Translations under genes and position numbers: made by a program
Notes under the pieces: model-generated
Database searches by the model: none
Told to the model about the DNA's origin: nothing
The model's input: only the letters and a program-made list of their open reading frames with translations
Shown here: piece after piece, positions 2,371 through 25,151 of the stretch
Position numbering within the stretch: position 1 is the first letter of the stretch
Layout: every line of letters begins with the position of its first letter
Assembly: GCA_021107575.1 (NCBI GenBank)
Contig: JAIOSM010000100.1
Coordinates: 1 to 46,789, forward strand
DNA length: 46,789 nucleotides
Reading direction: 5' to 3'
Origin: Desulfobacteraceae bacterium
GTDB lineage: Bacteria > Desulfobacterota > Desulfobacteria > Desulfobacterales > Desulfobacteraceae

Positions 2371-2910
2371 ATGGATCAAGACGAGAGAGAAAATTTGAAA
2401 TTTGATTTGCTAAATATGCACTGGACGGAAGAGTTGCATGACGGATTGAAAGAAATTGACGAAGAGGATGCAAAATCTATTGTTGAGTCAATGGATGAAG
2501 AGGAAATTACTTATAAAGTAAATCCGAGACGATTTCAGGAAGATTATATTGCAGATTATTTGGAATTTTTGTGGGAAATAAGTGAGGTCAGTTTCTGGAA
2601 GCATGTTAAAACAACGTTCGCTAAAGAGGTGGGGCTATTATGGTCAGACAACATGTTTTATTTCGATCAATTGTGCGATGAAGAATTTCCTCAAGATGTT
2701 TTAATAGAACTCATTAATTTTATTGTTGTATGTGATCCGGATTGCGAACAAGACATTAATCTTCTTGGTTGTATACTTAAAGAGCAAATAGCAAATTTCG
2801 ACAGATTACCTGAAATTAAAAAAATTGTTTCTTCTCTTCCAAAAAAACAGAAAACGGAAGCAAACAAAAGAATAAACCTAATGATCCAAATGGATTGTGA
2901 TTATCGATAA
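2371..2910 (+). CDS. hypothetical acidic cytoplasmic protein (179 aa)
   Basis: Long ORF rich in D/E with no motif I recognise. Ends 5 nt before the next gene, so the two are probably co-transcribed. Confidence 0.6.
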   Translation: MDQDERENLKFDLLNMHWTEELHDGLKEIDEEDAKSIVESMDEEEITYKVNPRRFQEDYIADYLEFLWEISEVSFWKHVKTTFAKEVGLLWSDNMFYFDQLCDEEFPQDVLIELINFIVVCDPDCEQDINLLGCILKEQIANFDRLPEIKKIVSSLPKKQKTEANKRINLMIQMDCDYR

Positions 2911-2915
2911 AAAAT

Positions 2916-5566: not shown

Positions 5567-5585
5567 TATCAATGAAACTGTCATA

Positions 5586-6055
5586 TTACTCACTGAAGTC
5601 TTTAGAAGCTATTTCGCAGGTCATTCTATTATCACAAAAAAGCCATTTTTCTATCTGATTGATAATATCATCTTCTTCCAATCTTCTTTTCCCGGTATAC
5701 GCACATTCCCAAACAGTTAAAACTCTCCACTCCAAACCCAAAAGCTTCAGAGTGTTTTTTTTATCTCTATCAATATTCGACTGAATTTTTTTTTCCAAAA
5801 CTCAGGGTTTGCTTTTGGTAATTTAAAATATCTGCAATTTTTATGGCCATGCCAGAAACATCCATGGACTTCTATAACAGCATTGTATTTAGGCAAGACA
5901 ATATCAGGCTTCCCCGGCAAGTTTTTTACATGTATTCTGAATCTATAACCTTTCCGATGCAACATGCTTCGAATGGCAACTTCAGGCTTTGTATTTTTTG
6001 ATCTGATCGCAGCCATATTCTTACTTCGGATCGCTGGAGAATGAACATCTGCCAT
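5586..6055 (-). pseudogene. vsr: very-short-patch repair endonuclease (Vsr), reading frame broken at an A9 homopolymer
   Basis: ORF 5747..6055 encodes the N-terminal block (SKNTKPE...RKGYRFR...LPGKPDIV...VHGCFWHGH...PEFWKKK). ORF 5586..5798 encodes the C-terminal block (IQSNIDRDKKNT..LGLEWRVLTVWECA). The frames join if the T9 run at 5786-5794 (A9 on the coding strand) were 10 nt. Confidence 0.85.
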
Positions 6056-6065
6056 AAATATTTGA

Positions 6066-7364
6066 TTAGGAAGCTTTTTTCCTGATGGTCCTTTTGCTAA
6101 TAAGTTGGTTTGCTTTAACTGCTTTCTTTATATAAGGTTGCATTAACTTTGCAACGGCATTGAAGACAGGTACAACAACTGAGTTCCCGAATTGCCTATA
6201 TGCCTGAGTATCCGATACAGGTATTTTAAAATTATTCCCATCTGGTTTATCAAAGCCCATTAGTCTTGAACATTCTCTGGGAGTTAACCTTCTTGGCCTC
6301 TTGCCTTTACCTCTATAAATAAGAATTTCAGATCCATCTTTATAATACCTTGCAGACAGGGTTCTTGCTATACTATCATTATAAGTTAGACTATATCCAA
6401 AACCATTTCCTTTTGCTTTATGTTTTGCTGCATAGTTCTGAAGGTATAACCATAGCTTAGGAGTCAAAATATATTTATCATCAACTTTTTCTTCAAGGAC
6501 ATCACTAAAAGAAGGTACTTTTTCAGGGAATAGCTTAGAAATTTTACTTAGGGAGAAACCTTCATGTACATTCAAATCCTTTCTATATCCCACCAAAACA
6601 ATTCTTTCCCTATGCTGGGGTACAAAATTCTGCCCGTCAATAATCTTCGGATCAGGCTGTTTTTTTTTAACATTCAGATCAGCAACAAAATATCCTAACT
6701 CCAGCAGTGTTTCTTTTATAACTCTGAAAGTATTACCTTTATTATGAGACTTCAGATTTTTAACATTTTCAAGCATGAAAACAGACGGCTTTTTTATGCT
6801 TAATATTCTGGCAACATCAAAAAAAAGCGTGCCTTGTGTTTTACATTCAAATCCATGCTTATCACCAAGAGCATTTTTTTTTGACACACCAGCAATAGAG
6901 AACGGCTGACAAGGGAACCCAGCTATCAGTACATCATGATTAGGTATCAGTTCATCAATATGTTTGCATGCCTGTCTATCATGAAGCCCGTTTGGTTGAG
7001 TAATTTCACGTATATCTCCGTTAATTTTATGATCCGAATGAAAATTAGCCATATATGTTCGGACAGCATATTTATCATATTCACTGGTGAAGACACATTT
7101 CCCTCCAACATTCTCAAAAGCTCGTCTTATTCCACCTATTCCTGCAAAGAGATCAATAAAAGTAAAATCAGGTTCAGATTTTACAAAATTTCTGGGTAAT
7201 AATTCTGAAAGTTTATCATATTTTGTTTTACTGAGTTCACATCCAATGTCTTTAAGTTTTCTGTTAATAGTCTCACGTTCAACACCAATATGCTCAGCAA
7301 TAAATTTTTGATCATAAATGGAAGCAACTTTTTTTAACAATTTGTATTCTGAAGTCTGTCTCAT
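6066..7364 (-). CDS. DNA (cytosine-5)-methyltransferase with N-terminal HTH extension
   Basis: Motif [11 protein letters not shown], motif [10 protein letters not shown], motif VI ENV, motif [14 protein letters not shown], motif [11 protein letters not shown]. The N-terminal ~60 aa carries an HTH-like [17 protein letters not shown]. Confidence 0.95.
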
Positions 7365-8591: not shown

Positions 8592-9281
8592 ATGGTGAAA
8601 AAAATGAGTTCTCTGTATTACTTTAAAAATTTTAAAAAATTGGCTAATGATTTTAGACGATCCCCTGTAAAAATTGAGAACGGAGCACTATGGATCGGAG
8701 ACTCTTTACAAGTATCTGAATGGGAAAAGCCATTCCAAAAAAAGTTAGCTCAAATATGCCTTAATAAAAAAGAAGGAAATATCTTAGAAATTGGATATGG
8801 GTTAGGAATGGCATCTAATATTCTTGCCGCCTCAAATATTATAAAATCATATTCCCTAATTGAGGCTCATCCCCAAATCTTTAGCACGGCACTTAATACT
8901 ATAGGGGAAGTTGCTAACTTTACAGGATATTATTCATTTTGGGAAGTTGTAGTAACAAAAATGTCCCCTAAATGTTTCGATTCTATTTTGTTTGATGCAT
9001 ATTTACCTTTGTTTGATAATAAGGCGGATTCAGAATATAAATCAAGTACAATTAAGAAGTATTTATTAGAATCATTACCTCATTTTTCAAGAATTCTCTC
9101 GAAAGAAGGAATTCTAGTATTTGTTGATGTCACAAATGATATCGAATTCTCAGCAAAAGAGTTGCTGAGTACAAATTTCCATAAACTTAAAAAAAAAAAA
9201 GTTGGTGTTGTAATTCCAGATCGTTGTCCTAATTATTGTAACGACGATTATGTTACACTCATTCAATTAGAGGCCTTATGA
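8592..9281 (+). CDS. SAM-dependent methyltransferase, guanidinoacetate N-methyltransferase (GAMT)/RMT2-like
   Basis: Colinear by eye with GAMT as I remember it: SEWEKPF..(WETPYM), ILEIGYGLGMAS (VLEVGFGMAIAA), FDSILFDAY (FDGILYDTY), ILSKEGILVF (LLKPGGVLTY). ATGA overlap with the next gene. Confidence 0.65.
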   Translation: MVKKMSSLYYFKNFKKLANDFRRSPVKIENGALWIGDSLQVSEWEKPFQKKLAQICLNKKEGNILEIGYGLGMASNILAASNIIKSYSLIEAHPQIFSTALNTIGEVANFTGYYSFWEVVVTKMSPKCFDSILFDAYLPLFDNKADSEYKSSTIKKYLLESLPHFSRILSKEGILVFVDVTNDIEFSAKELLSTNFHKLKKKKVGVVIPDRCPNYCNDDYVTLIQLEAL

Positions 9282-10636
9282 TGATTTATGTTTGTATAAT
9301 GTTCGTTCTTATTGTGTTTGTTTTTGTAGGTGTTTTCGGTCAAAAAGGAAAGAACTTCAGTAGCCTTGACCTATTACTCGATGATAAATCAGCTGGAATA
9401 TACAAGATTGGAGCAAGTCTTTTCACTTTAATAGGTGCTGGTGAAATAATAGCACTTTCAACCTTAGGGTTTCTCTTCGGTAGAAATGGTGTCTTCCTTT
9501 TTTTAGGGTATTTTGCTGCTTTTATTTTCTTGGGTTTGCTTGCTCCAAAGATACGAGCTTTACCAGCTACTCAAGGATCCAAATCAATAGTAGAATTTTC
9601 TAAAAATCATATTGGACCTTGGTTTGGATGGGTTGTTTTAACATGTTCTTTTGCTGCTTTTTTTTCTCTTCTTATGCTTCAATTCTCTGCTATTGGAGCA
9701 ATTTTACCAGACCAGAATATGGTTTCCCGCAGTATCATTATTGTTCTTGTTGCATTAGCTATATATGTTTATCTATCTAAGGGAGGTGGATTAGGCTCTG
9801 TGTTTAGGACAGATATTTTTCAATCAATTCTGATGATCACTTTAATGGGAGTCGTTTTACTATTATTTATTAATTCTCCGGATTTACCACAGAAAGCGCA
9901 TAAGTTCGAGATTCCACCCTTTAGTTACACCTGGGGCCTGCTTATCTCTGGCTTTTTCGTTGGAATTGTGAGTGCTGATGTCTGGCAAAGAATGTTTGCT
10001 GCAAAAAGTAATAGTTCTGCGAGAACGGGTTTCATTATGGGGGCATTTATATTATTAGTATATGGTTTTGTAATCACAGAAATAGGTGTACTTGTAGCAA
10101 ACTCCTATCCTCTAATTGATTCTAGTAATACTTTTTTTCATGCTTTAAAAATTGTTTTCCCTGGTGCCATGAGCCTACTAGGAATAGGCCTTTTACTTTC
10201 AGCGTTAATATCAACTGCAGATACTGAAATCTTTGTATTGACCACGATGCTGGTGGATAAAATTAGTCAATACAGTTCGTCCTATAAAGCTTACTTAGAT
10301 AAATTTCCTCTCAAAGCAGTTAACATAGTTCTTTTATCGGTTACTCTTCTTTCTGCGGGGTGCGCAATTTTTGCAGATAATTTATTGCAGATATATACTT
10401 GGCTACTGTATGCCTTAATTTCAATATCACCTGTTTTTTGGTTGTCTATAATTAAACCTATCCCTGATCGGCTTGCATCAATAACTGTGATAATTAATTG
10501 GGCAATTCTCGCCGAGATGATTGCTCAGGGTTTTATTACTATAGATACTGTTTATTACTATGTAATTCCTTGTTTGTTAACTGGAATAGTTGCGTTTATT
10601 GTATCTTGTGGGATTGACAGGGCAAAAAAAAACTAA
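9278..10636 (+). CDS. sodium:solute symporter (SSS) family transporter
   Basis: About 12-13 hydrophobic segments and an SSF-like ADVWQRMFAAKS motif. Translationally coupled (ATGA) to the upstream methyltransferase. Confidence 0.7.
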   Translation: MMIYVCIMFVLIVFVFVGVFGQKGKNFSSLDLLLDDKSAGIYKIGASLFTLIGAGEIIALSTLGFLFGRNGVFLFLGYFAAFIFLGLLAPKIRALPATQGSKSIVEFSKNHIGPWFGWVVLTCSFAAFFSLLMLQFSAIGAILPDQNMVSRSIIIVLVALAIYVYLSKGGGLGSVFRTDIFQSILMITLMGVVLLLFINSPDLPQKAHKFEIPPFSYTWGLLISGFFVGIVSADVWQRMFAAKSNSSARTGFIMGAFILLVYGFVITEIGVLVANSYPLIDSSNTFFHALKIVFPGAMSLLGIGLLLSALISTADTEIFVLTTMLVDKISQYSSSYKAYLDKFPLKAVNIVLLSVTLLSAGCAIFADNLLQIYTWLLYALISISPVFWLSIIKPIPDRLASITVIINWAILAEMIAQGFITIDTVYYYVIPCLLTGIVAFIVSCGIDRAKKN

Positions 10637-10791
10637 AAAATTTAACTTCTCCTTTAAAAGCAAAAGAATTTGAACACCGGGTACAAATTGGGAGTGAATT
10701 AGCATTATTCCTATATGTCTTTATATCTGCAGGGTTTAAATTTTTACTACCAGCATTTACAGAATTTGAAATAGTAAAACCAAATTTTCTC

Positions 10792-11424
10792 ATGCTTTTA
10801 TTCAATAAGGAGGGTTTCTATCTATCCGAATTCATAGGAATTTTCTTTTTCTGTGGATATATTCGGGTTTTTTTTGGAATTCATTTTTTAGATCATGATA
10901 AAAGTGCTAATGAAGCAAAAGAACGGTTTATTAAAGAGAAACGTGGTAATAAAGATTTAAATAAAATTTTTTCTGATGAAGGAATTCGTAGACCAATGTT
11001 ATATTTTTCAACCTTATTTATGCTTTGGTCAATTTGCTTAGGTGATTATCCAATTGCACGAGTAACTTTCTTTTGCTCTGGGTTCATTCAAATATTTGTC
11101 ATGCTACGATATTTGTATATATACTATGAAATATTATTAGAATATGATGACGATAAAAAATGGAACAAGTGCATCTATGTTGCGGATGGAATATATATAT
11201 TTTCAACATTATATCTATGCTGCTTTGTTCTTTTTACAGGATTTCGAGAAAAACTACTTTCCTGGAATTTTACCACATGGGGTTTATTAATTTTTATGAG
11301 TTTCTTTTTTGTTGTTTTTGTTCTTGAAATGATCGTGGTTTATATCAAATCATTATGTCGGGCAGTAATGGCATATTTTTCTATAATTGATATGATACAC
11401 CCTGATATTGAAGAATCTGATTAG
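10792..11424 (+). CDS. hypothetical multi-pass membrane protein
   Basis: ORF with 5-6 hydrophobic segments on the same strand as the transporter. Start codon uncertain. Confidence 0.45.
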   Translation: MLLFNKEGFYLSEFIGIFFFCGYIRVFFGIHFLDHDKSANEAKERFIKEKRGNKDLNKIFSDEGIRRPMLYFSTLFMLWSICLGDYPIARVTFFCSGFIQIFVMLRYLYIYYEILLEYDDDKKWNKCIYVADGIYIFSTLYLCCFVLFTGFREKLLSWNFTTWGLLIFMSFFFVVFVLEMIVVYIKSLCRAVMAYFSIIDMIHPDIEESD

Positions 11425-12360: not shown

Positions 12361-12816
12361 ATGATAAAAAAAATAATATCCGGAGGGCAAACAGGGGCAG
12401 ACATAGCCGGGGTTGATGCTGCAATTGAATCAAATATATCATATGGCGGTTGGTTACCAAAAGGAAGAAAAGCAGAAAACGGCATAGTGCCAGAAAAATA
12501 TTCTGCGTTTCAGGTCATGACCAGAGGTGGTTATCCAATGCGAACAGAACAAAACGTCAAAGATTCGGATGGTACGGTTATTTTTACTTTTGGAAAACTA
12601 TCCGGGGGATCCTCGTTGACAAAAAAATATGCAGTGAAAAATAAAAAGCCCTGGGTGCATATCGACTTGACAGCAAAAACAAATCCGACAGAAAAACTAA
12701 AAAATTGGGTGATTGATTGGGATATTCAAATTTTGAATGTAGCTGGGAAAAGCACGAGTAAAGCACCAAATATCTATGGTTTAGTGAAATCAATAATAAA
12801 AGATGTTTTGAAATGA
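12361..12816 (+). CDS. SLOG-superfamily protein, YpsA / 'putative molybdenum carrier' family
   Basis: N-terminal ISGGQTGADIAGVDAA...GGWLPKGRKAENGIVPEKY...RTEQNVKDSDGTV matches the YpsA-type SLOG signature. Confidence 0.8.
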   Translation: MIKKIISGGQTGADIAGVDAAIESNISYGGWLPKGRKAENGIVPEKYSAFQVMTRGGYPMRTEQNVKDSDGTVIFTFGKLSGGSSLTKKYAVKNKKPWVHIDLTAKTNPTEKLKNWVIDWDIQILNVAGKSTSKAPNIYGLVKSIIKDVLK

Positions 12817-13004
12817 GAATACAAACCAATCAATCGCCAGAAAGCAAAAATAATTTAGTTGTTAAAGCAAACATAGACAAAAAAATTAAATATAAAAAAT
12901 TCATCATAGTAGATAATGTAATTACAACCGGGGGAAGTGTTAAAGCTTTTGCAACCACATTACAAAACAATAAAATCAAAACTTGTAATGTGGTTGCTTT
13001 GATG
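12813..13004 (+). pseudogene. phosphoribosyltransferase (ComF-like PRPP-loop) remnant, read through into IS debris
   Basis: PRPP-binding loop KKFIIVDNVITTGGSVKAF. Only ~25 aa precede it, and the ORF 12813..13136 continues into an IS3 transposase tail from 13005. ATGA overlap with the SLOG gene. Confidence 0.5.
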
Positions 13005-13197
13005 GTAAGCGCTCAAAAACCCCATCTTAAAAAGCTTGAGGATTCATGTCATATTGAGCTTACTTATATTGAGATATTTTATAACAATAAAAGGCGTCAT
13101 TCTTATTTGGGTAATATCAAGTCCAAAAGAATTTGAAGAATTGTGGAAAATAGAAAAAGCACCTAAGAAAAGTGTCCGATTTTATTTGACCACATCA
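13005..13197 (+). mobile_element. IS3-family transposase 3' tail plus terminal end (remnant, copy A of an inverted pair)
   Basis: Encodes ..YIEIFYNNKRRHSYLGN, and after a frameshift SPKEFEELWKIEKA. Ends in ..GACCACATCA (CA terminus). Reverse complement recurs at 21289-21484. Confidence 0.8.
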
Positions 13198-13429
13198 CGC
13201 TGTTGAAGAATCATTTTTTCATACATTCAAGACACAATTAATCTATCATATTAGATTGAAAAATATTAACGAGGCGGAAAGAATTCTCTTTAAATATATC
13301 GAAATTTATTATAATCAAAGAAGAAAGCATTCTGCAAGTGGCTGGAAAGAGCCTGCTCACTGCGAGCAGGAATGGTATAACTTAAGAAAAGTGGCTTAAC
13401 TTAGCTTCCACTTTTTTGGGGTAGGATCA
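13198..13429 (+). mobile_element. second, different IS3-family transposase C-terminal remnant and putative right end
   Basis: Translates as HAVEESFFHTFKTQLIYH...FKYIEIYYNQRRKHSASG..., the typical OrfB C-terminus, with a stop at 13397-13399. The remnant ends ..GGTAGGATCA at 13429. Confidence 0.75.
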
Positions 13430-13460: not shown

Positions 13461-15500
13461 ATGCTAGAAACAATTTTTAGTGCGAATTCATTGGCATTTA
13501 TAGGGGTTTCAAACTCTAAAGATAAGGGCTATCAGACCATAAACACCCTTCAGAAAGAAGGATATAATGGAAATGTTTTTCCCGTCAATGCTAAAAAAGA
13601 TAGCATTCTTGGTCTTAAATGCTACAAAAGTATTACTGATATTGAACCTAACGTGAATATTGCATTCATCACTACTCCACTAAAAACCATTCCCTCTATT
13701 CTAAAAGAGTGCGGTGAGAAAGGAGTTGAAGGAGCCATCCTTGCCATTGAATTTTCTATGAAAGTAGATGAGAGTGATTTGAAAAATAAGATACTCCAAA
13801 CTGCCAAGGAGTATGGTATTCGTCTCATTGATTTCATAAGCAACATTGAATCCAACATGAACCTTTCTGGCATTAAAAATATACCTAAAGGTACTGTCGC
13901 TCTTCTTTACCAGAATAAAAATATTGCACAAAACCTAATTTCCAGAGCCACTCCCCGTCAATACATAGGGTTTACACATTGTGTGCAAGTGGGAAAAATT
14001 TCTGATATCGGCCTCGATGAATATCTTGAATATTTTACTAACGATCCAAGAACAAATTGTATCATACTATGTGTAGATTCGATTTCTGAGGGAAGAAAAT
14101 TTCTTATTGCAGCCTATAAAATCACGATAAGGAAACCTGTAATTATGTTGAGCATCAATCATTCAAATTTCAACTATGATGAGACTTTTGAGCGAAGTGG
14201 TATCATTGTTATTAGTGATCCAGATGAGCTTTTACCTGCGGCCGAAGCCTTAGCCAACCAAATACCCATAAAAAATAACAATATAAGTATACTTGGTTTC
14301 GATGGAGAATTTTATACTACCGAAACTGCTGACTTGCTTTCAGATTATGGTGTTCAACTTGTTACTCTATCTAATTCAAAACATAAAAAAGTGGAAAAAT
14401 ATTTTTCAAAAGCATCATTTATACTAAATTCATTTTATGTCAACCCTATTGAATACTCCGATCTATTATCTGTTACGGAGTTTGCTAAGATTATTCTACA
14501 AGATGGAAATGTAGGAGGCCTTATTATTGTAGGACTTTCCAAGGAAAGTGGCATATGTTTTAATGAAGAACTCACTCCTCCAAAAGAGGACGCACTCCGA
14601 AACCTAATAAAAAAACACAAACCTGTTGTGGTACATAGCAAATATATACCTCATAACAAAAATCCATTTCGGCTTTATGATATTCCAGTATATGATTCTC
14701 TTATGGTAGCATGTAAATGTATTATAAACCTATGTAAATACGGTAATCATCTTGTGCGATATCACAGTAAAACCAATTTTGTATTTAATTGGAGAGCGAA
14801 AGCTAAAAAACTTGGTGATGTTATCCTTCAAAAAGTTATTAAGGAAGGTAGGCGTTTCCTTTCAGAGAATGAAGCTAGGCAATTATTCAAGCTACACGGA
14901 GCGCCAATTCTTTTGATAGCAGAGACTGAGGATCAAGCGATTAAGCTGGCACAGAAGATTAAAGAAAAAGTGCTACTTAAAATCTTCCCTCTTGATGATA
15001 AGGAACAAAGCGATCCTGACAAAATCAGAGAGAATCTTGATACAGAGGATGAAATTCGCAGAGCATTCAGGGATCTTATGAAAACTGCTCGAAAATATAG
15101 CTCAAACGAAGTAACCTTGGGAATAATGGTTTCTCCCATGTCTGAAAGTGATGGTTTTGAGGTGACCATTGAAATCAAAACAGATGATACTTTTGGACCA
15201 ATTATCATGCTGAAGATTATGGAACATATTACCTCTCAAGTCCTGCCTATTCTTCCGAGGGAAGCCAAGAAAATGATTGAAGAGTCATCTCTATCATTCA
15301 TTTTTGATGGTGTGAAAGGGCAGTCAGGGTATGATAAGTATGGATTAAGAAAGCTACTATCAATTTGTTCTGAATTGATAGAAGCTTATCCAGAAATAGA
15401 GTCGATCAATTTGAACCCTGTGACTCTTTACCATCAAGGGCTTAATATTATGAATTTAAAAATTTTTCTAAGGGACAGAATCGTTCTTAAAGACGTATAG
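13461..15500 (+). CDS. ADP-forming acetyl/acyl-CoA synthetase-like protein (CoA-binding + ligase-CoA + ATP-grasp architecture), catalytic motifs apparently degenerate
   Basis: N-terminal CoA-binding pattern (LAFIGVSNS..GY..GNVFPVN..ILGLKCY..DI) and C-terminal ATP-grasp-like pattern (EARQLFKLHGAPI...DTFGPIIML...NLNPV). I cannot find GPNC, SQSG, a SHTG-type His loop or HKSDxGGV. Confidence 0.65.
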   Translation: MLETIFSANSLAFIGVSNSKDKGYQTINTLQKEGYNGNVFPVNAKKDSILGLKCYKSITDIEPNVNIAFITTPLKTIPSILKECGEKGVEGAILAIEFSMKVDESDLKNKILQTAKEYGIRLIDFISNIESNMNLSGIKNIPKGTVALLYQNKNIAQNLISRATPRQYIGFTHCVQVGKISDIGLDEYLEYFTNDPRTNCIILCVDSISEGRKFLIAAYKITIRKPVIMLSINHSNFNYDETFERSGIIVISDPDELLPAAEALANQIPIKNNNISILGFDGEFYTTETADLLSDYGVQLVTLSNSKHKKVEKYFSKASFILNSFYVNPIEYSDLLSVTEFAKIILQDGNVGGLIIVGLSKESGICFNEELTPPKEDALRNLIKKHKPVVVHSKYIPHNKNPFRLYDIPVYDSLMVACKCIINLCKYGNHLVRYHSKTNFVFNWRAKAKKLGDVILQKVIKEGRRFLSENEARQLFKLHGAPILLIAETEDQAIKLAQKIKEKVLLKIFPLDDKEQSDPDKIRENLDTEDEIRRAFRDLMKTARKYSSNEVTLGIMVSPMSESDGFEVTIEIKTDDTFGPIIMLKIMEHITSQVLPILPREAKKMIEESSLSFIFDGVKGQSGYDKYGLRKLLSICSELIEAYPEIESINLNPVTLYHQGLNIMNLKIFLRDRIVLKDV

Positions 15501-16225: not shown

Positions 16226-17506
16226 ATGGAACGCTATAGTACTTCAGTGACTCAGACAGTAGGAGAAGTTCATAACGGTAAAGTTATCGGAACTCAGGTT
16301 AATAATCAATTCATAGTCAACATAGATCCTGAATTCATGCGTAGTCTTTTGGAAATTTTTTCAAATAAAGGTATTGACAAAAAGATATGGAAGCCTTCTT
16401 ATAAGGCCAATATTCCTGAACTATTTAAAAAAAAATTTAAAGACACAGAATTGCTGACAATTTTAGAGGTATTATTTGATATACCGCCTCAACTGGATAA
16501 TTCTCTTCCACTTTTATCTTTTCTACAAGGATTTGTTGATAGAATAAAGGATAATGAAGTTGCCGACAAACTAGGAAAATGGATAAATAAGGTTGCTTTA
16601 GAACAAGCAAAAAACTCGAATTTTAATATAGCTAAAAAACCTGTTGAAATAATAACTGATGATCAAATTTTAAAAAATGCACATTTATTTATAGAGTTGA
16701 TACCTGATCCAAATAACCAAAACAAAGGACAAGAATTGTTTGTTATTAGGATGTATTTATGGAAAAATTCAAATGATGTTCAATGTAGATATACAAGTGA
16801 AAGACCCTGTGAAATAGGGGGTATTAATAAAATTATAGATCATTTTATAGCAACTGAGTTTGATGAACTTGATGAACTGCAAACAATCGAATTTTTTATG
16901 CCGTGTGGTTTTATCTTTCTTGAGGTTGACCAATGGAGAATAGAAGAAGGTATTCTTACTACTAAAACTTTTGGCCAAGAATATCATATATTTATCCGAC
17001 TGAATCGCAATCGCCAGTATAGGGATGGAAAAATGATTACAATTCATCCTGTGTCACGTCGGAAATGGAAGAAGAAGTGGGATTTTCTCCAAACAAAGGG
17101 AAAGGCATATCATGATTCAGTTGTATGGATGAATGACCAAGGTAGTTGCGACACTAAGAATTTGTTTAAACTTTTCGAATATTTTAATGAGGAATCTTGC
17201 CTGCTTATTACCTCTATGCCTGATGAGTCTGTAGATGAAATAGGATTAGGACATGTTATTCTCGAGACAGGTATTCCAATCGCTCTTTGTTTCAGAAAGA
17301 GTGGGCAGAATATTAAAAATATCGAACAAACTATAACTGAAATAAAAGAAACTATTTCAAAAGGAAATATTTATGAATTACCTGAAATGATTCTAAAAAA
17401 ACGTCGAGAAGCGAAAGATATCATGGATGTTGGTAATCACTTGACTCTGATATGGGATGATCCAGAACGAGTAATTCCAAAGTTTTATTACACTCCAAAA
17501 GGATAA
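16226..17506 (+). CDS. VMAP-like (vWA-MoxR associated) protein, no recognisable effector domain
   Basis: Sits immediately upstream of the MoxR ATPase (5-nt gap). The C-terminal region with ILETGIPIALCFRKSG resembles my recollection of the VMAP-C module. No catalytic motifs seen. Confidence 0.45.
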   Translation: MERYSTSVTQTVGEVHNGKVIGTQVNNQFIVNIDPEFMRSLLEIFSNKGIDKKIWKPSYKANIPELFKKKFKDTELLTILEVLFDIPPQLDNSLPLLSFLQGFVDRIKDNEVADKLGKWINKVALEQAKNSNFNIAKKPVEIITDDQILKNAHLFIELIPDPNNQNKGQELFVIRMYLWKNSNDVQCRYTSERPCEIGGINKIIDHFIATEFDELDELQTIEFFMPCGFIFLEVDQWRIEEGILTTKTFGQEYHIFIRLNRNRQYRDGKMITIHPVSRRKWKKKWDFLQTKGKAYHDSVVWMNDQGSCDTKNLFKLFEYFNEESCLLITSMPDESVDEIGLGHVILETGIPIALCFRKSGQNIKNIEQTITEIKETISKGNIYELPEMILKKRREAKDIMDVGNHLTLIWDDPERVIPKFYYTPKG

Positions 17507-17511
17507 ATAAT

Positions 17512-18552
17512 ATGACAAAATGGCACATTTTTAAGGGTAACAAAATCCCACATGACGGAATAAATATTCATCCGCTTCCTCCACCACCACCTTGGAGAGA
17601 ATTCAAAGGAAAGGTTCTTGAGGAGAGAAATCTCGAGCCTGACAGTCGGGCAACAAGGCGTTTAGGAAGTTCTTCGAGACAAAAAACGTTTGAAGCAAGT
17701 GAAATAGAAATTGAAATGGTGAATGCCTCACTTTATCTTCGACGACCTCTACTTGTAACTGGAAAACCCGGAACTGGAAAATCATCATTGGCCTTTGCAG
17801 TGGCTCATGAACTAAAGTTGGGAAATGTAATTTACTGGCCAATTACTACTCGTTCAACACTTCAAGAAGGGCTTTATAGGTATGATGCTATCGGTCGTTT
17901 ACAGGAAATTCAACTTGCTCGTTTTGATGAGGCCAATAAGAATAAAACAATTCCAGATATTGGGCAATTTATTCGATTAGGACCTTTAGGAACTGCATTA
18001 CTGCCTTCAAAACGTCCACGCGTTCTATTGATTGATGAAATTGACAAGAGTGATATCGATTTGCCAAATGATTTACTTAACATTTTCGAAGAAGGAGAGT
18101 TTGAGATTCCTGAACTTTCAAGGTTGTCTGAAAAATTTGAAACAGTTAAAATATTTCCATATGATGGTAGTGAGACGGTGCCTATTGCAAGAGGGCATGT
18201 CCTATGCCGCGAGTTTCCACTCATCATATTGACCAGCAATGCTGAAAGGGAATTTCCCACACCTTTTTTGAGACGTTGTCTTCGCCTTGATATTAAGCCT
18301 CCAACACCAGAAAAATTGGAAAAAATTGTTCATGCCCATTTCAATAATATAAGTGTAGATGCTGAAGAAGAAATAGAAAAACTAATCAAATTATTTTTGA
18401 CGCGTGCCCAAGAGAATGATTTGGCAACAGATCAATTACTTAATGCTATCTATCTGACTACTCAAGGCATTGACCTATTAATTAAAGATAAAAGTAAATC
18501 CAACCTTATCGATGCTGTACTGAGACACTTAAATACATTAGGGACGGTATGA
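17512..18552 (+). CDS. MoxR-like AAA+ ATPase (AAA_5 type)
   Basis: Walker A LLVTGKPGTGKSSLA, Walker B RVLLIDEIDKSDIDLPNDLLNIFEEG, sensor region TSNAEREFPTPFLRRC. Confidence 0.9.
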   Translation: MTKWHIFKGNKIPHDGINIHPLPPPPPWREFKGKVLEERNLEPDSRATRRLGSSSRQKTFEASEIEIEMVNASLYLRRPLLVTGKPGTGKSSLAFAVAHELKLGNVIYWPITTRSTLQEGLYRYDAIGRLQEIQLARFDEANKNKTIPDIGQFIRLGPLGTALLPSKRPRVLLIDEIDKSDIDLPNDLLNIFEEGEFEIPELSRLSEKFETVKIFPYDGSETVPIARGHVLCREFPLIILTSNAEREFPTPFLRRCLRLDIKPPTPEKLEKIVHAHFNNISVDAEEEIEKLIKLFLTRAQENDLATDQLLNAIYLTTQGIDLLIKDKSKSNLIDAVLRHLNTLGTV

Positions 18553-21101
18553 TTAAGGCTTTAATTCAAACCCTAAGTAGTATTGGTTTCATAGGTACAG
18601 GAGAGGAGATCGCTGATATTCTGTGGTTGGCATCGCATTTTGATAAAATGGAATCAGATGAATTTGAGATGATTCAGAATCGGCCAACGGTCAAAAAAGT
18701 TCCTTTAAAATTTGAATCGCGAGAAGAAAAACTGAATTCATCTCAATACAATATACCTAGAAAAAAGCTTAAACAATCCAGCAAACCCGTGCGAGCAGAA
18801 TTGCATCCAGCTGAGCAAAAAGAAACGATCATCTCTGATAAAAACGATATTGCTTTCCAAACTCCAGGAGCTCCTGCACTTTCTAACAAACTATCTATTA
18901 GTAGAGCACTTCGTCCACTCATGAGAAAAGTTCCATCTCGAGTTTATCAGGTTTTAGATGAAGAAGAAACTGTAAGACAAAGTGCGGAAACTGATAACTG
19001 GCTCCCAAAGATGCGCCCTGAATCATCTCGGTGGCTTGATATAATTCTTGTTGTAGAGGAATCTATGTCAACGATTGTATGGGAAAAAACAATTATGGAG
19101 TTTAAAGCTTTACTTGAACGAATAGGGGCATTTAGAAATATTCAGTGCTATGGCATTTGTACAGAAAAAAAACAAATCAAATTACATATGGGGATTGGAC
19201 ATAAGGCAATAAAAAATATTACTCGAAATCCTAAGGAATTGATTGATACCCTAAAACAGAGGATTATTCTTGTAGTAAGTGATTGTTCTTCAAAAGCGTG
19301 GCACGATGGCCGAATAGCAAAAATGATGAGTTGCTGGTCAAATAACGCTATGTGTTCTATTGTTCAATTGCTTCCATATTGGAGTTGGGATCACACTGGG
19401 CTCAATCGCGCTGAGTTTGTTTATCTACGGGCTACACAGGCGGGTACTGTTAATGATTCACTAAAAGTAGAAATATCTTACAAATCTGATAAAATTGTCA
19501 AGAAAGGATTTTCTGTTCCTATAATTACTTTAGAAACAGCATCGATTCATTCATGGGCAAAATCTTTAGCAGGTTTAGGTGGAATATGCTTACCTGGTGT
19601 TATATTTCAATTGCCAACTTCAGATATCTGTTTGGATCAAAACTTGGAAGAGGATGAATTACCAAAAAAATCCTTGTCTTTAGAAGGAAAAATGAAGCGG
19701 TTTCAAGCGAATGCTTCTCCACTGGCACAACAATTAGCATGTTACCTTGCCGGAGTTCCCCTAACTCTTCCGATTATGCGTTTAGTTCAAAAAGTTATGC
19801 TTCCAAAATCTGAACAGATTCATCTGGCAGAAATCTTTTTGAGCGGTTTATTAAAAAGAAATTCAAATGATTTGTCTATACCTAGTGAAAAAGCTAAATA
19901 TGATTTTACAACTGGAGTTAGGGAATACTTGATTAGTATGACTCTTTTGAGTGAAACTGTTGACGTTATTACCAAGGTAACAAAAAAACTAGGATGTTTT
20001 ATAGATAAGCAAACAGGAAAAACTATTGATTTTAAAGCAATTCTTGTTAATCCTTCATTAGTTGATCGAGTATCTATAAATGAAGACAGCAAAACCTTTG
20101 CTTCAGTTGCTATGGATGTGTTAAGGCGGTTAGGAGGACATTATACAGAATTATCTAATCAAATTAATTCTCAAATATTCGGTATTTATGATTTTTCAGA
20201 AGAAAATAGAAAAATTAACCTTAATCAAAGACGTCATGGATATTTAAATACTCTTTTAAAAGGCTGGGGTACTCCTAAAGATAGGATGACTGTTGGAAAT
20301 AGATTGAGTCGTATGGGAGACTCCAGATTTGACCCTGCTAATTATTATCTTCCCGCAGATAAAAATATGGGCTTTGTCACTGTGCCAGCGGGTAAATTTT
20401 TGATGGGAAGTGATGAGAAAAATGACTCAGAGGCATTTAAGGATGAAATACCACAGCGTGGAGTTGACTTGTCAGATTATCAGATTGCTCGATATCCAGT
20501 AACAGTTGTGCAATACAAATTTTACGCGAAGGAAACCAAATTAAATCTTAGTGCTAACTGGAAAAATTTTAATACCATAGATAATCATCCAGTTGTATAT
20601 GTAAGTTGGAACGATGCTGTTCAATATTGTAAATGGCTTACAAAAGAGATGGTAAAAAACGAAATTAATTGTCTAATAACCCTGCCCAACGAAGCTCAAT
20701 GGGAAAAAGCAGCCCGTGGACCAAATGGACAAATATATTCTTGGGGAAACAACAGAATAGATCCGAGCAAGGCCAATTATTTTGATACCGATATTTACAC
20801 AACAAGCCCGGTAGGATGTTTTCCTGATGGTGCCTCAATTTATGGAACAATGGATATGATTGGTAATGTATGGGAGTGGTGTAATAATTGGCATGATAGA
20901 AATAGCTATTTTGATAATCAGTCTGTAGATTATTCTACAAAAGAGAGCGAAACCTCGCGTGTTCTTCGAGGAGGATCATGGGGCAACTTTGCTAAATTCT
21001 GCCGTGCTGCTAACCGTCTCATCGACTCACAGAATTCTAAGGACAATTATATTGGTTTCCGGCTGCTTTTTTCACCTAAAAATGGAAGACAAAAAAAATA
21101 G
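18549..21101 (+). CDS. multidomain protein: N-terminal SAV_2336-like module, vWA-like domain with degenerate MIDAS, C-terminal formylglycine-generating-enzyme (FGE-sulfatase/SUMF1) domain
   Basis: ATGA overlap with the MoxR gene. Carries EEIADILWLASH, then LVVEESMSTIVW...RIILVVSDCSSKAWHDG (vWA-like). The FGE domain from about 20346 shows HPVVYVSWNDAVQYC, GNVWEWC, RVLRGGSW and IGFRLL. Confidence 0.8.
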   Translation: MIKALIQTLSSIGFIGTGEEIADILWLASHFDKMESDEFEMIQNRPTVKKVPLKFESREEKLNSSQYNIPRKKLKQSSKPVRAELHPAEQKETIISDKNDIAFQTPGAPALSNKLSISRALRPLMRKVPSRVYQVLDEEETVRQSAETDNWLPKMRPESSRWLDIILVVEESMSTIVWEKTIMEFKALLERIGAFRNIQCYGICTEKKQIKLHMGIGHKAIKNITRNPKELIDTLKQRIILVVSDCSSKAWHDGRIAKMMSCWSNNAMCSIVQLLPYWSWDHTGLNRAEFVYLRATQAGTVNDSLKVEISYKSDKIVKKGFSVPIITLETASIHSWAKSLAGLGGICLPGVIFQLPTSDICLDQNLEEDELPKKSLSLEGKMKRFQANASPLAQQLACYLAGVPLTLPIMRLVQKVMLPKSEQIHLAEIFLSGLLKRNSNDLSIPSEKAKYDFTTGVREYLISMTLLSETVDVITKVTKKLGCFIDKQTGKTIDFKAILVNPSLVDRVSINEDSKTFASVAMDVLRRLGGHYTELSNQINSQIFGIYDFSEENRKINLNQRRHGYLNTLLKGWGTPKDRMTVGNRLSRMGDSRFDPANYYLPADKNMGFVTVPAGKFLMGSDEKNDSEAFKDEIPQRGVDLSDYQIARYPVTVVQYKFYAKETKLNLSANWKNFNTIDNHPVVYVSWNDAVQYCKWLTKEMVKNEINCLITLPNEAQWEKAARGPNGQIYSWGNNRIDPSKANYFDTDIYTTSPVGCFPDGASIYGTMDMIGNVWEWCNNWHDRNSYFDNQSVDYSTKESETSRVLRGGSWGNFAKFCRAANRLIDSQNSKDNYIGFRLLFSPKNGRQKK

Positions 21102-21288
21102 AAGACATTACCTTTATTGTCATTATTTAAGATTATATTCAGACATCCAATTTAATTCACAGTTTTGTTTTTGATAACATTTTCGTATGTTGGTTTTGGT
21201 CTGTAGTAATCCCAACTCAGCAAAGGGATTAGAATATATATCAGTGTAAATTTAATTTACTACAAAAAATTAATAACCACTTGAGAAA

Positions 21289-21484
21289 TGATGTGGTCAA
21301 ATAAAATCGGACACTTTTCTTAAGCTGCTTTTTCTATTTTCCACAATTCTTCAAATTCTTTTGGACTTGATATTACCCAAATAAGAATGACGCCTTTTAT
21401 TGTTATAAAACATCTCAATATAAGTAAGCTCAATATGACATGAATCCTCAAGCTTTTTAAGATGGGGTTTATTAAGCGCTTACC
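21289..21484 (-). mobile_element. IS3-family transposase tail remnant, copy B (inverted copy of 13005-13197)
   Basis: The reverse complement aligns with 13005-13197 end to end with a handful of substitutions and small indels. It has the same inner terminus (..GACCACATCA) and the same outer breakpoint (GGTAAGCGCT). Confidence 0.85.
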
Positions 21485-22492: not shown

Positions 22493-23413
22493 TCAATCCC
22501 TTTGAGTATCAAGCATTTCAGTTCTGCTTGTGTCGAAACATCTAAGAGGCAAGAAGGTTTTATCTTGCCACAGCCCTATTTTTCTTCTTCTTGCTGTTTT
22601 TTGTATTTCAAACCAGTTATTACAAAAATTAGCTTTACAGTGTTTAGGGTATACCCAGGCAAAGCCATTTTTTAATAACTCCTTGCTCAAGGATTTCTTT
22701 TTTAAATAAATACTTGCAATCACTCTGCCATAACAACCTTGACCGTATGAGACTCCAAACACTTTTTTATTTAAAATTAGATCAGAAACAAACTTTTTAG
22801 CATTTTGGCCACAGCGATGTTTTGTCTCCGGTGCATCAATGCCATAAAACCGAACAGTAAGAATTTTGTTAAGGTCTTTAATTTTGATGGTGTCACCATC
22901 TAAGACCTTAACAACTTTACCGGAGAACATATCATTAGCGTAAGCCGTGGCGGATAATCCTGTGATCTTGGAATACTGAACCATGACTTTTTGAATATAT
23001 TCTATACAGTCAAAAAACCGTCTTAAATTTGGTAAGTCCAGGGGGGCATATCCTGAATGGTATGAACCAACGGACGCCCAAGATTTTCCATATCGATTTT
23101 GACTCTCTTTTAAAATATATGCTCCAGTTTCAGTGCAATAAACGGGATCTGTGAGCAAACGAGCTAAATCAATGCCTTTTTTCTCCCAAAAACTATTGAT
23201 TTGCATGTGTCCCACGTCAATCGTTCCATAGTTGATGGCAAGAGCTGTATTATTATGCTTACTTTCTACGCTACTGATAGCCCTTAAAATATTTGAATCG
23301 ACGTTAAATCGGGCAGATACGGAGTCGAATTTGTAGTCATCTGCAAAAACAAACGAATTTAAGAAAAATAGTAAAAAAAGAACGTTTTTTGATGCTTTTT
23401 TAATAATTTTCAT
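22493..23413 (-). CDS. secreted VirB1-like lytic transglycosylase fused to a staphylococcal-nuclease (SNase/thermonuclease) domain
   Basis: Start trimmed to MKIIKKASKNVLFLLFFLNSFVFA (signal peptide). SLT block AISSVESKHN...DVGHMQINSFW. SNase block VLDGDTIKI...VRFYGIDAPET...YGRVIA...GFAWVY. Confidence 0.8.
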   Translation of the reverse strand: MKIIKKASKNVLFLLFFLNSFVFADDYKFDSVSARFNVDSNILRAISSVESKHNNTALAINYGTIDVGHMQINSFWEKKGIDLARLLTDPVYCTETGAYILKESQNRYGKSWASVGSYHSGYAPLDLPNLRRFFDCIEYIQKVMVQYSKITGLSATAYANDMFSGKVVKVLDGDTIKIKDLNKILTVRFYGIDAPETKHRCGQNAKKFVSDLILNKKVFGVSYGQGCYGRVIASIYLKKKSLSKELLKNGFAWVYPKHCKANFCNNWFEIQKTARRRKIGLWQDKTFLPLRCFDTSRTEMLDTQRD

Positions 23414-25151
23414 ATTCTTCTTCATTTTTTTTAGTTTCAAAAGCATTTTCCGGTAAAGCATCAACACTAGGAATATTATCTTCTTCTGCTTCAGCTTCTT
23501 CCTCAACTTCAATATTTATCGGCAAACCAATAAATGACGACATAGACTTATCTAAAAAGTAAAAAGGAGCAAAGCAAGCAATAGGTGTTTCAAAAGCACC
23601 TTGAACTAGAATAAACATTTGCCCAAAATCCATACTCATAATATCTTGACTTCGTATTAATGCCATGCCTTGCTCTGATTCAGATCCTCCCTGGAGTAAT
23701 GACCGCCTTTCATTTTTTGTTACCTTTTTAAAAGTGAAATCTCCCACAGAATCAGAAATTAATTTTGCTTCCTGAAATTCATTCTGAGAAAAAATTAAGT
23801 GAAACGAGCAAGTATTCCTTAGGGCATTGGTTAAGTGTTCACCATAAACATTTTTTAACTGACTGATAGATTGACATATAAAAATAGCATTAAATTTATA
23901 GCCTCGGCCAACATCAGGTAAAGTAATAACCTGTGTCATTTTTTGCAGTCTTACAAATTCGTCCAGGATAAAAGTTATTTTTTGATCCTTGCCGGTTGGT
24001 TCTTTTTCAAGCAGGGACAGAGTACCTAATTCAAAAAACAATGATATAATTGGTTTTAATCTTTCAATGTCAGGCATAGAGACAACTAAATAAACAGTTA
24101 TGGTTTCATTTCTTAAATCTTTAAATGTAAAATCTGATTTAGTAGTATTTTTTGCAACTCTTTCATCATTAAAAAGATTCATAGAATTTTTAAAAGTTCC
24201 AAAAATACCGTCAAATTGTTTGTCTGCCATATCAACAAAGCTGATTCCTTCATTTTTTATTCTTTGTGGTAAATCCGGATTGCTTTCTATTGCAGCTTGA
24301 ATAGCGTATTGCCCCTCAACGCTTGATTCAAAAATTTTACTAAAAGAAGTCTCTCCATTTTTATAAATCAAAAACATAGCCCAAAATCTAAACATCGTCC
24401 TGCCCTCTGACACCCACATGGAAGCTGATCCGTCCTTTTGGTCGTTAGCTATAATGGATTCAGCAATTCTTGATACATGTACCTGTATATCGTTTTGGGC
24501 TTGTGGTAATTCTTGTTTTGAAAGAGGGTTCCAGGAAGCAGAATTATCTTTTCCGGGATCATACTTTATAATTGTTCCAATTTGCGACTTAGCGCCGGCA
24601 GTCATTTTAAAAACCTCACCTTTTGGATCTAAAATCACAAGACTGTTATTGGATGCAAGCACAGAAGGAATAACAACTCCAGTGGTTTTACCTGAACCAG
24701 GGGGAGCATATACCAAGGCAGACAAGGGCTGGTCTGTCCTTAAATATTCTGCTCCCCATGCTCCAAAAACTTTGGGAGTATGGCGAACTCCATTTTTATC
24801 CTTTTTAATAGAGCCATGAGGTTTAGTGAGCCCCAAAACCATTCCTTCATCATTTCTTAAGCCTAAATTTTTAATTTCTTTTTCATTTGCCCAATGAGCA
24901 CCGCCAAAAGCATCTTTAGACCTAAAAGGATTTAACATAATTGCAAAAAATGAAAAAACGATTGAAAAAGCTATTGAATACTTAAACCAGGCTGGAAAAG
25001 GCATTGATATTTCTTTAAAACAAATAAAAGCTGCTCCCGGAACCATAGGGTAATTTTTATAAAAGACAAGAATACACCAAAACACGAAATATCCTGATAA
25101 AAGGGATAAAACCACCCATAATAAACTTTTTGAACTATCGTTTTGATTCAT
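23400..25151 (-). CDS. virD4: type IV secretion coupling protein VirD4/TraG
   Basis: N-terminal TM segments, Walker A VYAPPGSGKTTGVVIPS, Walker B-like ITFILDEF. Position in the transfer block. Confidence 0.93.
   Translation of the reverse strand: MNQNDSSKSLLWVVLSLLSGYFVFWCILVFYKNYPMVPGAAFICFKEISMPFPAWFKYSIAFSIVFSFFAIMLNPFRSKDAFGGAHWANEKEIKNLGLRNDEGMVLGLTKPHGSIKKDKNGVRHTPKVFGAWGAEYLRTDQPLSALVYAPPGSGKTTGVVIPSVLASNNSLVILDPKGEVFKMTAGAKSQIGTIIKYDPGKDNSASWNPLSKQELPQAQNDIQVHVSRIAESIIANDQKDGSASMWVSEGRTMFRFWAMFLIYKNGETSFSKIFESSVEGQYAIQAAIESNPDLPQRIKNEGISFVDMADKQFDGIFGTFKNSMNLFNDERVAKNTTKSDFTFKDLRNETITVYLVVSMPDIERLKPIISLFFELGTLSLLEKEPTGKDQKITFILDEFVRLQKMTQVITLPDVGRGYKFNAIFICQSISQLKNVYGEHLTNALRNTCSFHLIFSQNEFQEAKLISDSVGDFTFKKVTKNERRSLLQGGSESEQGMALIRSQDIMSMDFGQMFILVQGAFETPIACFAPFYFLDKSMSSFIGLPINIEVEEEAEAEEDNIPSVDALPENAFETKKNEEEYENY

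Follow-up and report, generated by a model that had tools for sequence, protein, structure and literature searches.

A VMAP-type MoxR-vWA ternary cassette with a probable fourth, effector gene and an apparent relic variable region on a conjugative element

We analyzed a 46,789-nt stretch of DNA from a Desulfobacteraceae bacterium (contig JAIOSM010000100.1; hereafter the window, to whose positions all coordinates refer, features being on the + strand unless stated), in which a first-pass annotation had pointed out a candidate conflict system of the VMAP/MoxR/vWA type. The core of this cassette consists of three open reading frames (ORFs) that encode a VMAP protein, a MoxR-type AAA+ ATPase, and a protein in which a von Willebrand factor A (vWA)-like region is followed by a formylglycine-generating enzyme (FGE)-sulfatase domain (Table 1). 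The VMAP and MoxR genes are separated by a 5-nt spacer (TAA ATAAT ATG) and the MoxR and vWA genes overlap at an ATGA; the same tight packing, gap and overlap had been described at first pass, and every peptide motif quoted there is present in the ORF translations. A further ORF, preceded by a strong ribosome-binding site, encodes a small helical protein and is separated from the VMAP gene by 116 nt. The cassette lies inside an 8.1-kb segment bounded by inverted repeats of ∼181 nt (97-100% complementary), which are remnants of insertion sequences (IS), on an element of ∼34% GC.

Table 1. Positions of the cassette genes, the apparent relic variable region and the flanking IS remnants in the window (PRTase, phosphoribosyltransferase; AF2, AlphaFold2).
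Feature	Positions	Strand	Basis
Left IS3-family end remnant (transposase C-terminus and terminal inverted repeat); truncates a PRTase gene	13017..13197	+	
Small helical protein, 149 aa	15660..16109	+	Synteny with VMAP/NACHT loci, hhalign, AF2
VMAP, 426 aa	16226..17506	+	Pfam VMAP-C PF20028
MoxR-type AAA+ ATPase, 346 aa	17512..18552	+	AAA_5 above cut-off; Walker A/B intact
vWA-FGE protein, 850 aa	18549..21101	+	SAV_2336_NTERM and FGE-sulfatase profiles
Apparent relic variable region of the lectin-fold domain (codons 812-834)	20982..21050	+	NNC/NNY codon signature
Right IS3-family end remnant, inverted copy of the left; begins 187 nt past the stop codon of the vWA-FGE gene	21289..21470	-	

The three core proteins were assigned with curated profiles. 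Pfam VMAP-C (PF20028) covers residues 189-413 of the VMAP protein (E 2.5e-20; 73.8 bits against a cut-off of 27), which bears out the VMAP-C-like appearance of the C-terminal region reported at first pass and places the protein in this family, not in an unrelated housekeeping family. The product of the middle gene, previously called a MoxR/AAA_5 ATPase, matches Pfam AAA_5 above the cut-off (E 3e-8; 34.2 bits against 22) and is 75 and 67% identical to the MoxR proteins of two VMAP-related loci, L002 and L001, respectively (homologous loci are labeled L001 to L010); its Walker A (GKPGTGKSS) and Walker B (LLIDEIDK) motifs are intact and both are invariant in comparison with these two proteins. 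In the 850-aa protein, NCBIfam SAV_2336_NTERM matches residues 18-479 (E 1.2e-114) and Pfam FGE-sulfatase matches residues 608-839 (E 4.2e-50). Exhaustive searching gave 552 VMAP relatives, and 265 vWA-FGE homologs were found at E<=1e-10, mostly in Nostocales and at 30-45% identity.

The gene order 5'-VMAP, MoxR, vWA-3' is identical in L001, L002, L008, and L009 and corresponds to the strict order VMAP-MoxR-vWA of the VMAP ternary systems as defined by Kaur et al. (2020; PMC7159879). In that work, a tripartite VMAP is composed of an N-terminal peptidase, signaling domain or EAD, a variable VMAP-M and VMAP-C; the C-terminus of the vWA protein carries variable effector domains, of which FGS (FGE-sulfatase, C-type-lectin fold) is treated as one and occurs almost exclusively in cyanobacterial systems; the length of the vWA protein has its mode at ∼850 residues, as in the window; and reports of the VMAP-C domain are confined to conflict systems. 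The systems are linked to hosts of multicellular or aggregative habit. The window cassette shares with these systems the VMAP-C domain, the MoxR AAA+ ATPase, the vWA protein with C-terminal FGS and the gene order, and also the much stronger conservation of MoxR relative to the VMAP and vWA proteins. It differs from them in that its VMAP is devoid of an N-terminal peptidase, TIR or EAD and is preceded by a small helical protein absent from the listed EAD partners, in that no diversity-generating retroelement (DGR) was found in the window, and in its location, a conjugative element of 34% GC, the systems reported so far being from cyanobacteria or purple sulfur bacteria. Judged by sequence, the cassette belongs to the VMAP-type MoxR-vWA ternary conflict systems, vWA-FGS class, of Kaur et al. 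(2020). This assignment, which upholds the one made at first pass, is solid because it combines curated profiles, hundreds of VMAP and vWA-FGE relatives and a MoxR identity of 67-75%. A role in defense or against invaders may be supposed from the genomic context and the literature.

Other searches added little. PADLOC-DB 2.0, suggested at first pass as a check, has no model for this system and gave no system-specific match: the ATPase was matched only at the level of the P-loop by IetA, TRIP13, and mad8 (E >= 3e-6, Walker A region), and there were zero matches for the other three proteins of the cassette. When 9 kb of the locus was searched against plasmid DNA, no match came up. A separately assembled ENA contig (L003) carries identical MoxR and vWA-FGE genes plus the VMAP 3' end. 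The word-index search for the VMAP protein found two fragments only, one from the same locus and one at 51% identity, and the VMAP is divergent. A scan of the locus for promoters and terminators was uninformative in the AT-rich DNA.

The vWA-FGE protein is laid out as an N-terminal helix, a disordered linker, a vWA-like alpha/beta domain (approximately residues 110-355), a helical middle, a linker, and the FGS domain (608-839). Because the SAV_2336 model extends to residue 479, the unassigned middle, put at ∼270 aa at first pass, is really ∼128 aa long (480-607). The AF2 model of the whole protein has the alpha/beta domain at residues 110-355 with a pLDDT of 80-90. A PDB profile search with the vWA part found only integrin alpha1 I-domains, aligned on the strand of the metal ion-dependent adhesion site (MIDAS) at a weak E of 0.5; Pfam VWA_CoxE reached 0.045 for one homolog; and Foldseek with the 850-aa model gave FGE-domain matches only among the matches listed, so that the vWA fold was not confirmed thereby. 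Direct evidence for the predicted vWA fold is modest. Across 29 aligned homologs, MIDAS strand 1 ends in D-E-S-P-S in the closest clade and in E-E-[STN]-x-[ST] in the window protein (E-E-S-M-S) and most cyanobacterial homologs; the Asp of strand 4 (D245) does not vary. The site had been regarded as degenerate; from the alignment, ExSxS/ExTxS appears to be the commonest cyanobacterial state and the change from Asp to Glu a conservative one.

The FGE domain was matched to solved structures by phmmer (ToxD, 9e-27; FGE, ∼1e-21; TvpA, 1e-12) and by Foldseek (FGE/PvdO, 7e-13). Of the copper-binding Cys pair of FGE (C-x4-C after RGGS[FW]) the first Cys is absent: in the alignment to T. curvata FGE (6s07), FLCHESYC stands opposite WGNFAKFC. 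The full FGE-sulfatase/SUMF1 domain announced at first pass is present as a domain but incomplete in its catalytic pair. The domain looks like a ligand-binding lectin-fold domain of the FGS class that DGRs diversify. Alternatively, the core could do housekeeping work as a MoxR-vWA chaperone pair that has a catalytic FGE and matures, for example, a sulfatase or the neighboring acyl-CoA synthetase-like protein: MoxR-vWA pairs serve as maturation chaperones in other systems (Kaur et al., 2020), and the gene for the acyl-CoA synthetase-like protein is found in the same IS-bracketed segment. The missing catalytic Cys, the restriction of VMAP-C reports to conflict systems, the lack of a sulfatase in the window and the linkage of relatives to TIR, caspase, and DGR elements all speak against such a chaperone, which we consider effectively excluded.

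The IS remnants on both sides consist of an IS3-type transposase C-terminus with a terminal ...CACATCA; they are 3' ends of the element, both truncated at the same internal point. A composite transposon with two complete IS copies was not found, these 3'-end remnants being all that is left; the IS-bracketed cargo of the first-pass annotation thus holds for the bracketing by inverted repeats, and the brackets are remnants, not complete IS. The IS-end pattern had no match in GTDB genomes. Downstream of the vWA-FGE gene, the right remnant begins short of the place, ∼330-370 nt after the gene, where relatives carry the template repeat of a DGR.

The connection with DGRs had been missed at first pass and shows both in template repeats of relatives and in a fossil codon signature in the window. 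Roughly 80% of the systems from cyanobacteria and gammaproteobacteria are linked to a DGR (Kaur et al., 2020), and DGR-diversified vWA-CLec targets, with a clade accompanied by MoxR and VMAP, were described by Dore et al. (bioRxiv 10.1101/2023.09.22.558884; PNAS 2024). The window protein has the architecture of these targets. In its three closest-clade loci a template repeat lies downstream of the vWA-FGE gene (L002:8852-8978, L008:7822-7949, and L009:7543-7670); it is a ∼128-nt copy of the variable region, 84-87% identical to it. For L002, the only pair aligned, most of the ∼20 mismatches between variable region and template repeat are at adenines of the downstream copy. No reverse transcriptase was found on the short contigs L002, L008, and L009, and no template repeat within 17 kb in L001. 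In the window, the region 20400-21300 has no repeat anywhere in the 46.8 kb, and no RVT match was obtained among the 34 ORFs scanned with Pfam (∼20 ORFs of at least 100 aa, all below 250 aa, were not scanned); in contrast to the targets of Dore et al., the downstream DNA is the IS remnant.

The translated template repeat of L002 can be laid on the window protein without gaps and at equal length, with W811, C818, R819, A821, N822, R823, and I-G-F-R conserved between them. At the 11 positions where the template has Asn (AAY), the window codons are GGC AAC TTT TTC AAC CTC GAC TCT GAC AAT TAT. All 11 are NNY (p 4e-4) and 7 are NNC; the proportion of NNC is 9.6% in the remainder of the gene (p 1.7e-5), and 2 of the segment's 12 remaining codons are NNC (Fisher p 0.03). 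Nowhere in the vWA-FGE gene is NNC denser than in codons 810-834. When a DGR mutagenizes the adenines of an AAC codon, the third base is unchanged. Because NNC has been kept at the template Asn positions and adenine mutagenesis spares the third base, codons 812-834 look like a formerly diversified variable region. The capture event may have cut the cassette off from its DGR, or the mutator may reside elsewhere in the host genome.

These results also bear on the possibility that the cassette is a stranded relic, cut off from its DGR by IS-mediated capture and now hitch-hiking on the element, without a current function and with a specificity that is frozen and perhaps of no use. Such an origin would agree with the missing template repeat and reverse transcriptase, with an IS remnant standing 187 nt after the stop codon where relatives have their repeat further on, with the drift of 4 of the 11 signature codons to NNT, with flanks that are an IS graveyard and with truncated variants of two cassette proteins in another sample. 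On the other hand, the four ORFs are intact and the Walker motifs, MIDAS residues and invariant family residues are preserved; the MoxR and vWA-FGE genes recur unchanged, with the VMAP 3' end, on the separate contig L003; L001 likewise has no nearby template repeat; and DGRs can act on remote targets. We rate a functionless relic as unlikely.

The window VMAP is built of a Q/N/G/V/T-rich N-terminal segment (residues 5-33), a VMAP-M-like helical middle and VMAP-C, and its start, STSVTQTVGEVHNGKVIGTQVNNQFIVNI, is 79% Q/N/G/V/I/T. Pfam found nothing N-terminal of VMAP-C, neither an EAD nor an enzymatic domain, in agreement with the first-pass remark that no protease, nuclease or TIR domain sits on this protein; an N-terminal peptidase, nucleotide-signaling domain or EAD is typical, not obligatory, for membership of the family. 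Among the 20 closest VMAPs that were aligned, most have an N-terminal domain of 65-100 aa that is missing from the window VMAP, and EAD2, likewise absent from it, was scored in 13. The operons L002, L008, and L009 have the order TIR-EAD2, caspase-EAD2, EAD2-VMAP, MoxR, vWA-FGE, and the sharing of domains suggests that these closest relatives recruit TIR and caspase effectors via EAD2. The closest full-length relative of the window VMAP (P0125 of L004, 40% identity) is the only other VMAP with the same short N-terminus.

Some further proteins were inspected. P0194 and P0203 were considered as fusions and rejected, as they have other N-terminal domains. L001:4440-6521 encodes a 693-aa VMAP starting 'MDPFISTICMLGVGVV', a MEPIS-like hydrophobic start on a 300-aa extension without Pfam match; its 'MDPFIS' N-terminus was rejected as a homolog of the small protein (hhalign probability 2%). 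P0001 and P0124, from a 4.2-kb JGI contig, are variants of the window VMAP (diverging after residue 299) and of the small protein (after residue 83); a disrupted locus copy in another sample is their possible source.

In L002, L008, and L009, the slot upstream of the VMAP gene is taken by the TIR-EAD2 and caspase-EAD2 genes; in the window it is taken by the gene for the 149-aa protein. The genes of its homologs (35-45% identity) directly precede a VMAP gene in L004, a NACHT NTPase gene in L005 and a gene of unknown product in L006. The L004 member is a 148-aa product (45% identical, E 6e-47) encoded 47 nt upstream of P0125; the L005 member is encoded 48 nt upstream of its NACHT NTPase; and the L006 member, on plasmid p3 of Calothrix PCC 7716, is upstream of two unknown genes and adjoins an LRR-Roc-COR-EAD1 protein. 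A distant relative (hhalign probability 91.8%, E 7.6e-7, 78 columns) was found in L010:3932-7052, on the conjugative plasmid1 of Sphaerospermopsis kisseleviana NIES-73 (AP018315.1). It is a 125-aa helical protein starting with 'MDSIS', its gene lies 19 nt upstream of a NACHT-Tll0287 gene, and its C-terminus VQISGGKVQGLTQQNTGTINQSF agrees with the NACHT N-terminus VNIYGSNIQGFIQENNGTVSQYF at 11 of 23 positions (z 7.8, p<2e-4). By sequence, this arrangement has the configuration that defines the Bell/BASS-NLR gene pairs (NLR, NOD-like receptor) of Dyrka et al. (2020; bioRxiv 10.1101/2020.01.06.895854).

The 149-aa protein itself begins with a 'MDPGIT' hydrophobic helix, continues with a predicted all-alpha domain of ∼100 aa and ends in a C-terminal tail with two pseudo-repeats (Q..h..[AG].[ND][VMI][VT]G) that align without gaps. 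All family members start with M-D/E-P/S/L-x-I/L-S/T, and in five of five proteins the most hydrophobic 17-mer is the N-terminal helix (residues 8-24 in the window). The 'MDPxI[TS]' start with its hydrophobic helix resembles the "MEPIS" pore-lining helix region shared by Bab, Bell, and Hell (bioRxiv 10.1101/2024.11.07.622273), of which Bab/Agp is an experimentally validated relative of Bell/BASS (Ibarlosa et al., 2024); pseudo-repeats in the tail are known from HET-s and some Bell proteins (Dyrka et al., 2020). The apparent likeness to Bell/BASS and Bab/Agp extends to the small size, the predicted ∼100-aa helical domain, the short and putatively beta-prone C-terminal motif in two pseudo-repeats, the gene position just upstream of a receptor with a Q/N/G/V-rich N-terminus and the pairing of family members with NACHT NTPases. 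The differences are that the window receptor is a VMAP, not an NLR or Agp, that the profile searches brought up no Bell or HeLo model, and that the identity between effector and receptor motifs is weak for the window pair, amyloid formation being only conjectural. With the EAD2-TIR and EAD2-caspase effectors the small protein has in common the gene position immediately 5' of VMAP and a presumed recruitment to the VMAP N-terminus; unlike them, neither window partner has an EAD, and the putative coupling element is a ∼30-residue peptide, not a folded adaptor. The cassette, described at first pass as a three-gene, effector-poor variant, probably has four genes, the fourth being conserved in the effector slot, and the 149-aa protein is probably a cell-killing effector.

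Several results weigh against this effector assignment and against the function proposed for the cassette. The small protein has no Pfam, NCBIfam or PADLOC match; a PDB profile search with it gave chance matches only, and Foldseek with its weak single-sequence model found no structural match. In that AF2 model helices extend to about residue 100, the tail at 105-149 is of low confidence and the mean pLDDT is a poor 60.6. The family so far comprises four close members and one distant relative, all but two on short metagenomic contigs; its alignment found nothing in collections of genome contigs and viral contigs, and a word-index search found the same locus only. Similarity between effector tail and receptor N-terminus was detected in L006 (p 0.0003) and L005 (p 0.017) and is not significant in L004 (p 0.09) or in the window (p 0.18), the Fisher combined p over the four family loci being 7e-5. 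BLASTP of the small protein against VMAP was not significant, and hidden Markov models built from effector repeats or receptor N-termini did not retrieve the partner class. The specificity of the window sensor is frozen, and with its DGR lost the sensor may have become obsolete. Finally, the literature searched contained no experimental study of a VMAP ternary system.

The same results would fit a system limited to the three core genes, in which the vWA-lectin protein is sensor and output at once, for instance by sequestration or aggregation of the target, and the 149-aa gene is an unrelated neighbor or a separate small toxin. Apart from the missing tail similarity in the window, such a system would agree with the treatment of FGS as an effector by Kaur et al. 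(2020) and with the small gene-VMAP gap, which exceeds those inside the core. It does not account for the conservation of the small gene directly upstream of the L004 VMAP, the sole other one with a short N-terminus, for the replacement of the EAD2 effector genes of the sister clade by the small gene, or for the pairing of its relatives with NACHT NTPases. A core of three genes heads the list of alternatives and is nevertheless improbable in our judgment.

A further question is how a VMAP would be coupled to such an effector. NLR-like receptors activate Bell/Bab-type executors via a short terminal motif (bioRxiv 10.1101/2020.01.06.895854; 10.1101/2024.11.07.622273). In L007:2-1599, the N-terminus of a more distant VMAP (P0148), NAIAGHDFTGNTLNYG, matches the C-terminus of the upstream product, NVVAAHDITGNVFNFG, over a 16-aa motif (z 5.9). 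The pair appears to be a BASS-like shared motif in a VMAP system, and, since the motif is common to both partners, coupling of VMAPs by a peptide motif would exist in at least one relative. One may speculate that a short terminal peptide, by amyloid-like or beta-strand templating, and not a folded EAD adaptor, can link VMAP ternary systems to a Bell-type pore-forming executioner. We hold this coupling to be conceivable but doubtful, and for the window locus the new hypothesis is not statistically secured.

The reading that we prefer, with a probability of roughly 0.6, is that of a four-gene VMAP ternary conflict system, composed of small helical protein, VMAP, MoxR, and vWA-lectin protein, which was captured between inverted IS3-family remnants on a conjugative element and uses the small protein as its effector. 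In such a system, the C-terminal lectin-fold (FGS) domain would bind an invader-derived ligand with a specificity that is rewritten by DGRs in relatives and frozen in the window. The vWA MIDAS site and the MoxR AAA+ ring would turn this binding into an ATP-driven rearrangement of the VMAP complex; this follows Dore et al. (bioRxiv 10.1101/2023.09.22.558884), in whose model the vWA-lectin protein is the sensor, MoxR the transducer and VMAP stands on the output side. The N-terminal segment of VMAP might then be exposed or oligomerized to pass the signal on, and might trigger the 149-aa protein, whose N-terminal helix would damage the membrane in the manner of abortive infection. The 149-aa protein is proposed for this role because its layout is that of the Bell/Bab-type membrane-targeting cell-death executors. 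Sensing, the direction of the signal, effector activity and a defense role are all predicted.

The surroundings of the cassette are those of a conjugative element. The window encodes VirB4 (46% identical to its best plasmid match, from Nitrosospira), VirB6, TrbI/VirB10, VirB11, a T4 coupling protein, a relaxase, TopA, and a resolvase, together with a restriction-modification (R-M) pair of an MvaI/BcnI endonuclease and a C5 methylase, as the first-pass annotation of a conjugative element with an R-M system had it. The endonuclease has a ∼187-aa N-terminal extension and its gene is convergent with the C5 cytosine methylase gene (4217-7364). A protein with a SocA/Panacea antitoxin domain is encoded at 44047-44904, near the relaxase region, and suggests a toxin-antitoxin module on the element. 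The cassette might serve the element and not the host, by exclusion of rival plasmids or donor-killing phages, or as an addiction or abortive module that stabilizes it. The adjoining type IV secretion system, R-M pair and SocA/Panacea protein would suit this purpose, as would the occurrence of SAV_2336-type vWA systems on 61 PLSDB plasmids, 10 of them conjugative, and of small-protein relatives on mobilizable and conjugative cyanobacterial plasmids. Homologous systems are also present in chromosomal-looking contexts (L001), and service to the element does not really exclude the four-gene conflict system preferred here; as a separate explanation we think it very unlikely.

Some neighboring genes deserve mention. 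At 12361-13136, a PRTase ORF follows a cpYpsA SLOG gene (Pfam 3e-49), and the C-terminus of this ORF runs into the IS3-type rve_2 remnant; the left IS arm seems to have truncated a SLOG-PRTase pair here. Just inside this arm (13250-13400) is a second, different transposase C-terminal remnant ('IEIYYNQRRKHSASGW...'), which makes the junction an IS graveyard. The acyl-CoA synthetase-like protein of the bracketed segment (13461-15500) is a 679-aa NDP-forming enzyme type with CoA_binding, Succ_CoA_lig, and ATP-grasp_5 domains; no mention of ATP-grasp or CoA enzymes tying it to VMAP systems was found in the text of Kaur et al. (2020). At 22493-23512 (- strand), adjoining the T4 coupling protein, an SLT lytic transglycosylase and a staphylococcal-nuclease domain are joined in one protein, an unusual VirB1-like/nuclease fusion. 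Five + strand ORFs (179, 365, 229, 452, and 210 aa) at 2371-4013 and 8592-11424 have no Pfam match at E<=1e-3.

Already known are the class of the system, its fusion of vWA with FGS, its association with DGRs and its carriage on plasmids. New are the minimal version packaged in the IS-flanked cargo of a conjugative element and, as far as can be judged from homology, a VMAP subtype that has no EAD and is paired with a Bell-like small protein, relatives of which serve NACHT receptors, and an apparent fossil variable region without its DGR. VMAP ternary systems are large, are found in filamentous bacteria that are hard to handle, and usually come with DGRs and several effectors. The cassette described here is a minimal mobile-element version of four genes and 5.5 kb, with one candidate effector and a fixed sensor sequence, and therefore offers a practical start for testing the path from ligand binding through MoxR-vWA to cell death. 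Whether a VMAP activates a Bell-like executor, and how a DGR target fares after losing its mutator, could also be learned from it. If VMAPs are wired by peptides, the prion-like or SMOC-type signaling (supramolecular organizing center) of NLRs and Bab/Agp would be at work downstream of a MoxR-vWA machine as well, and the window would hold a compact, DGR-less, plasmid-borne example that can be cloned as one 5.5-kb unit.

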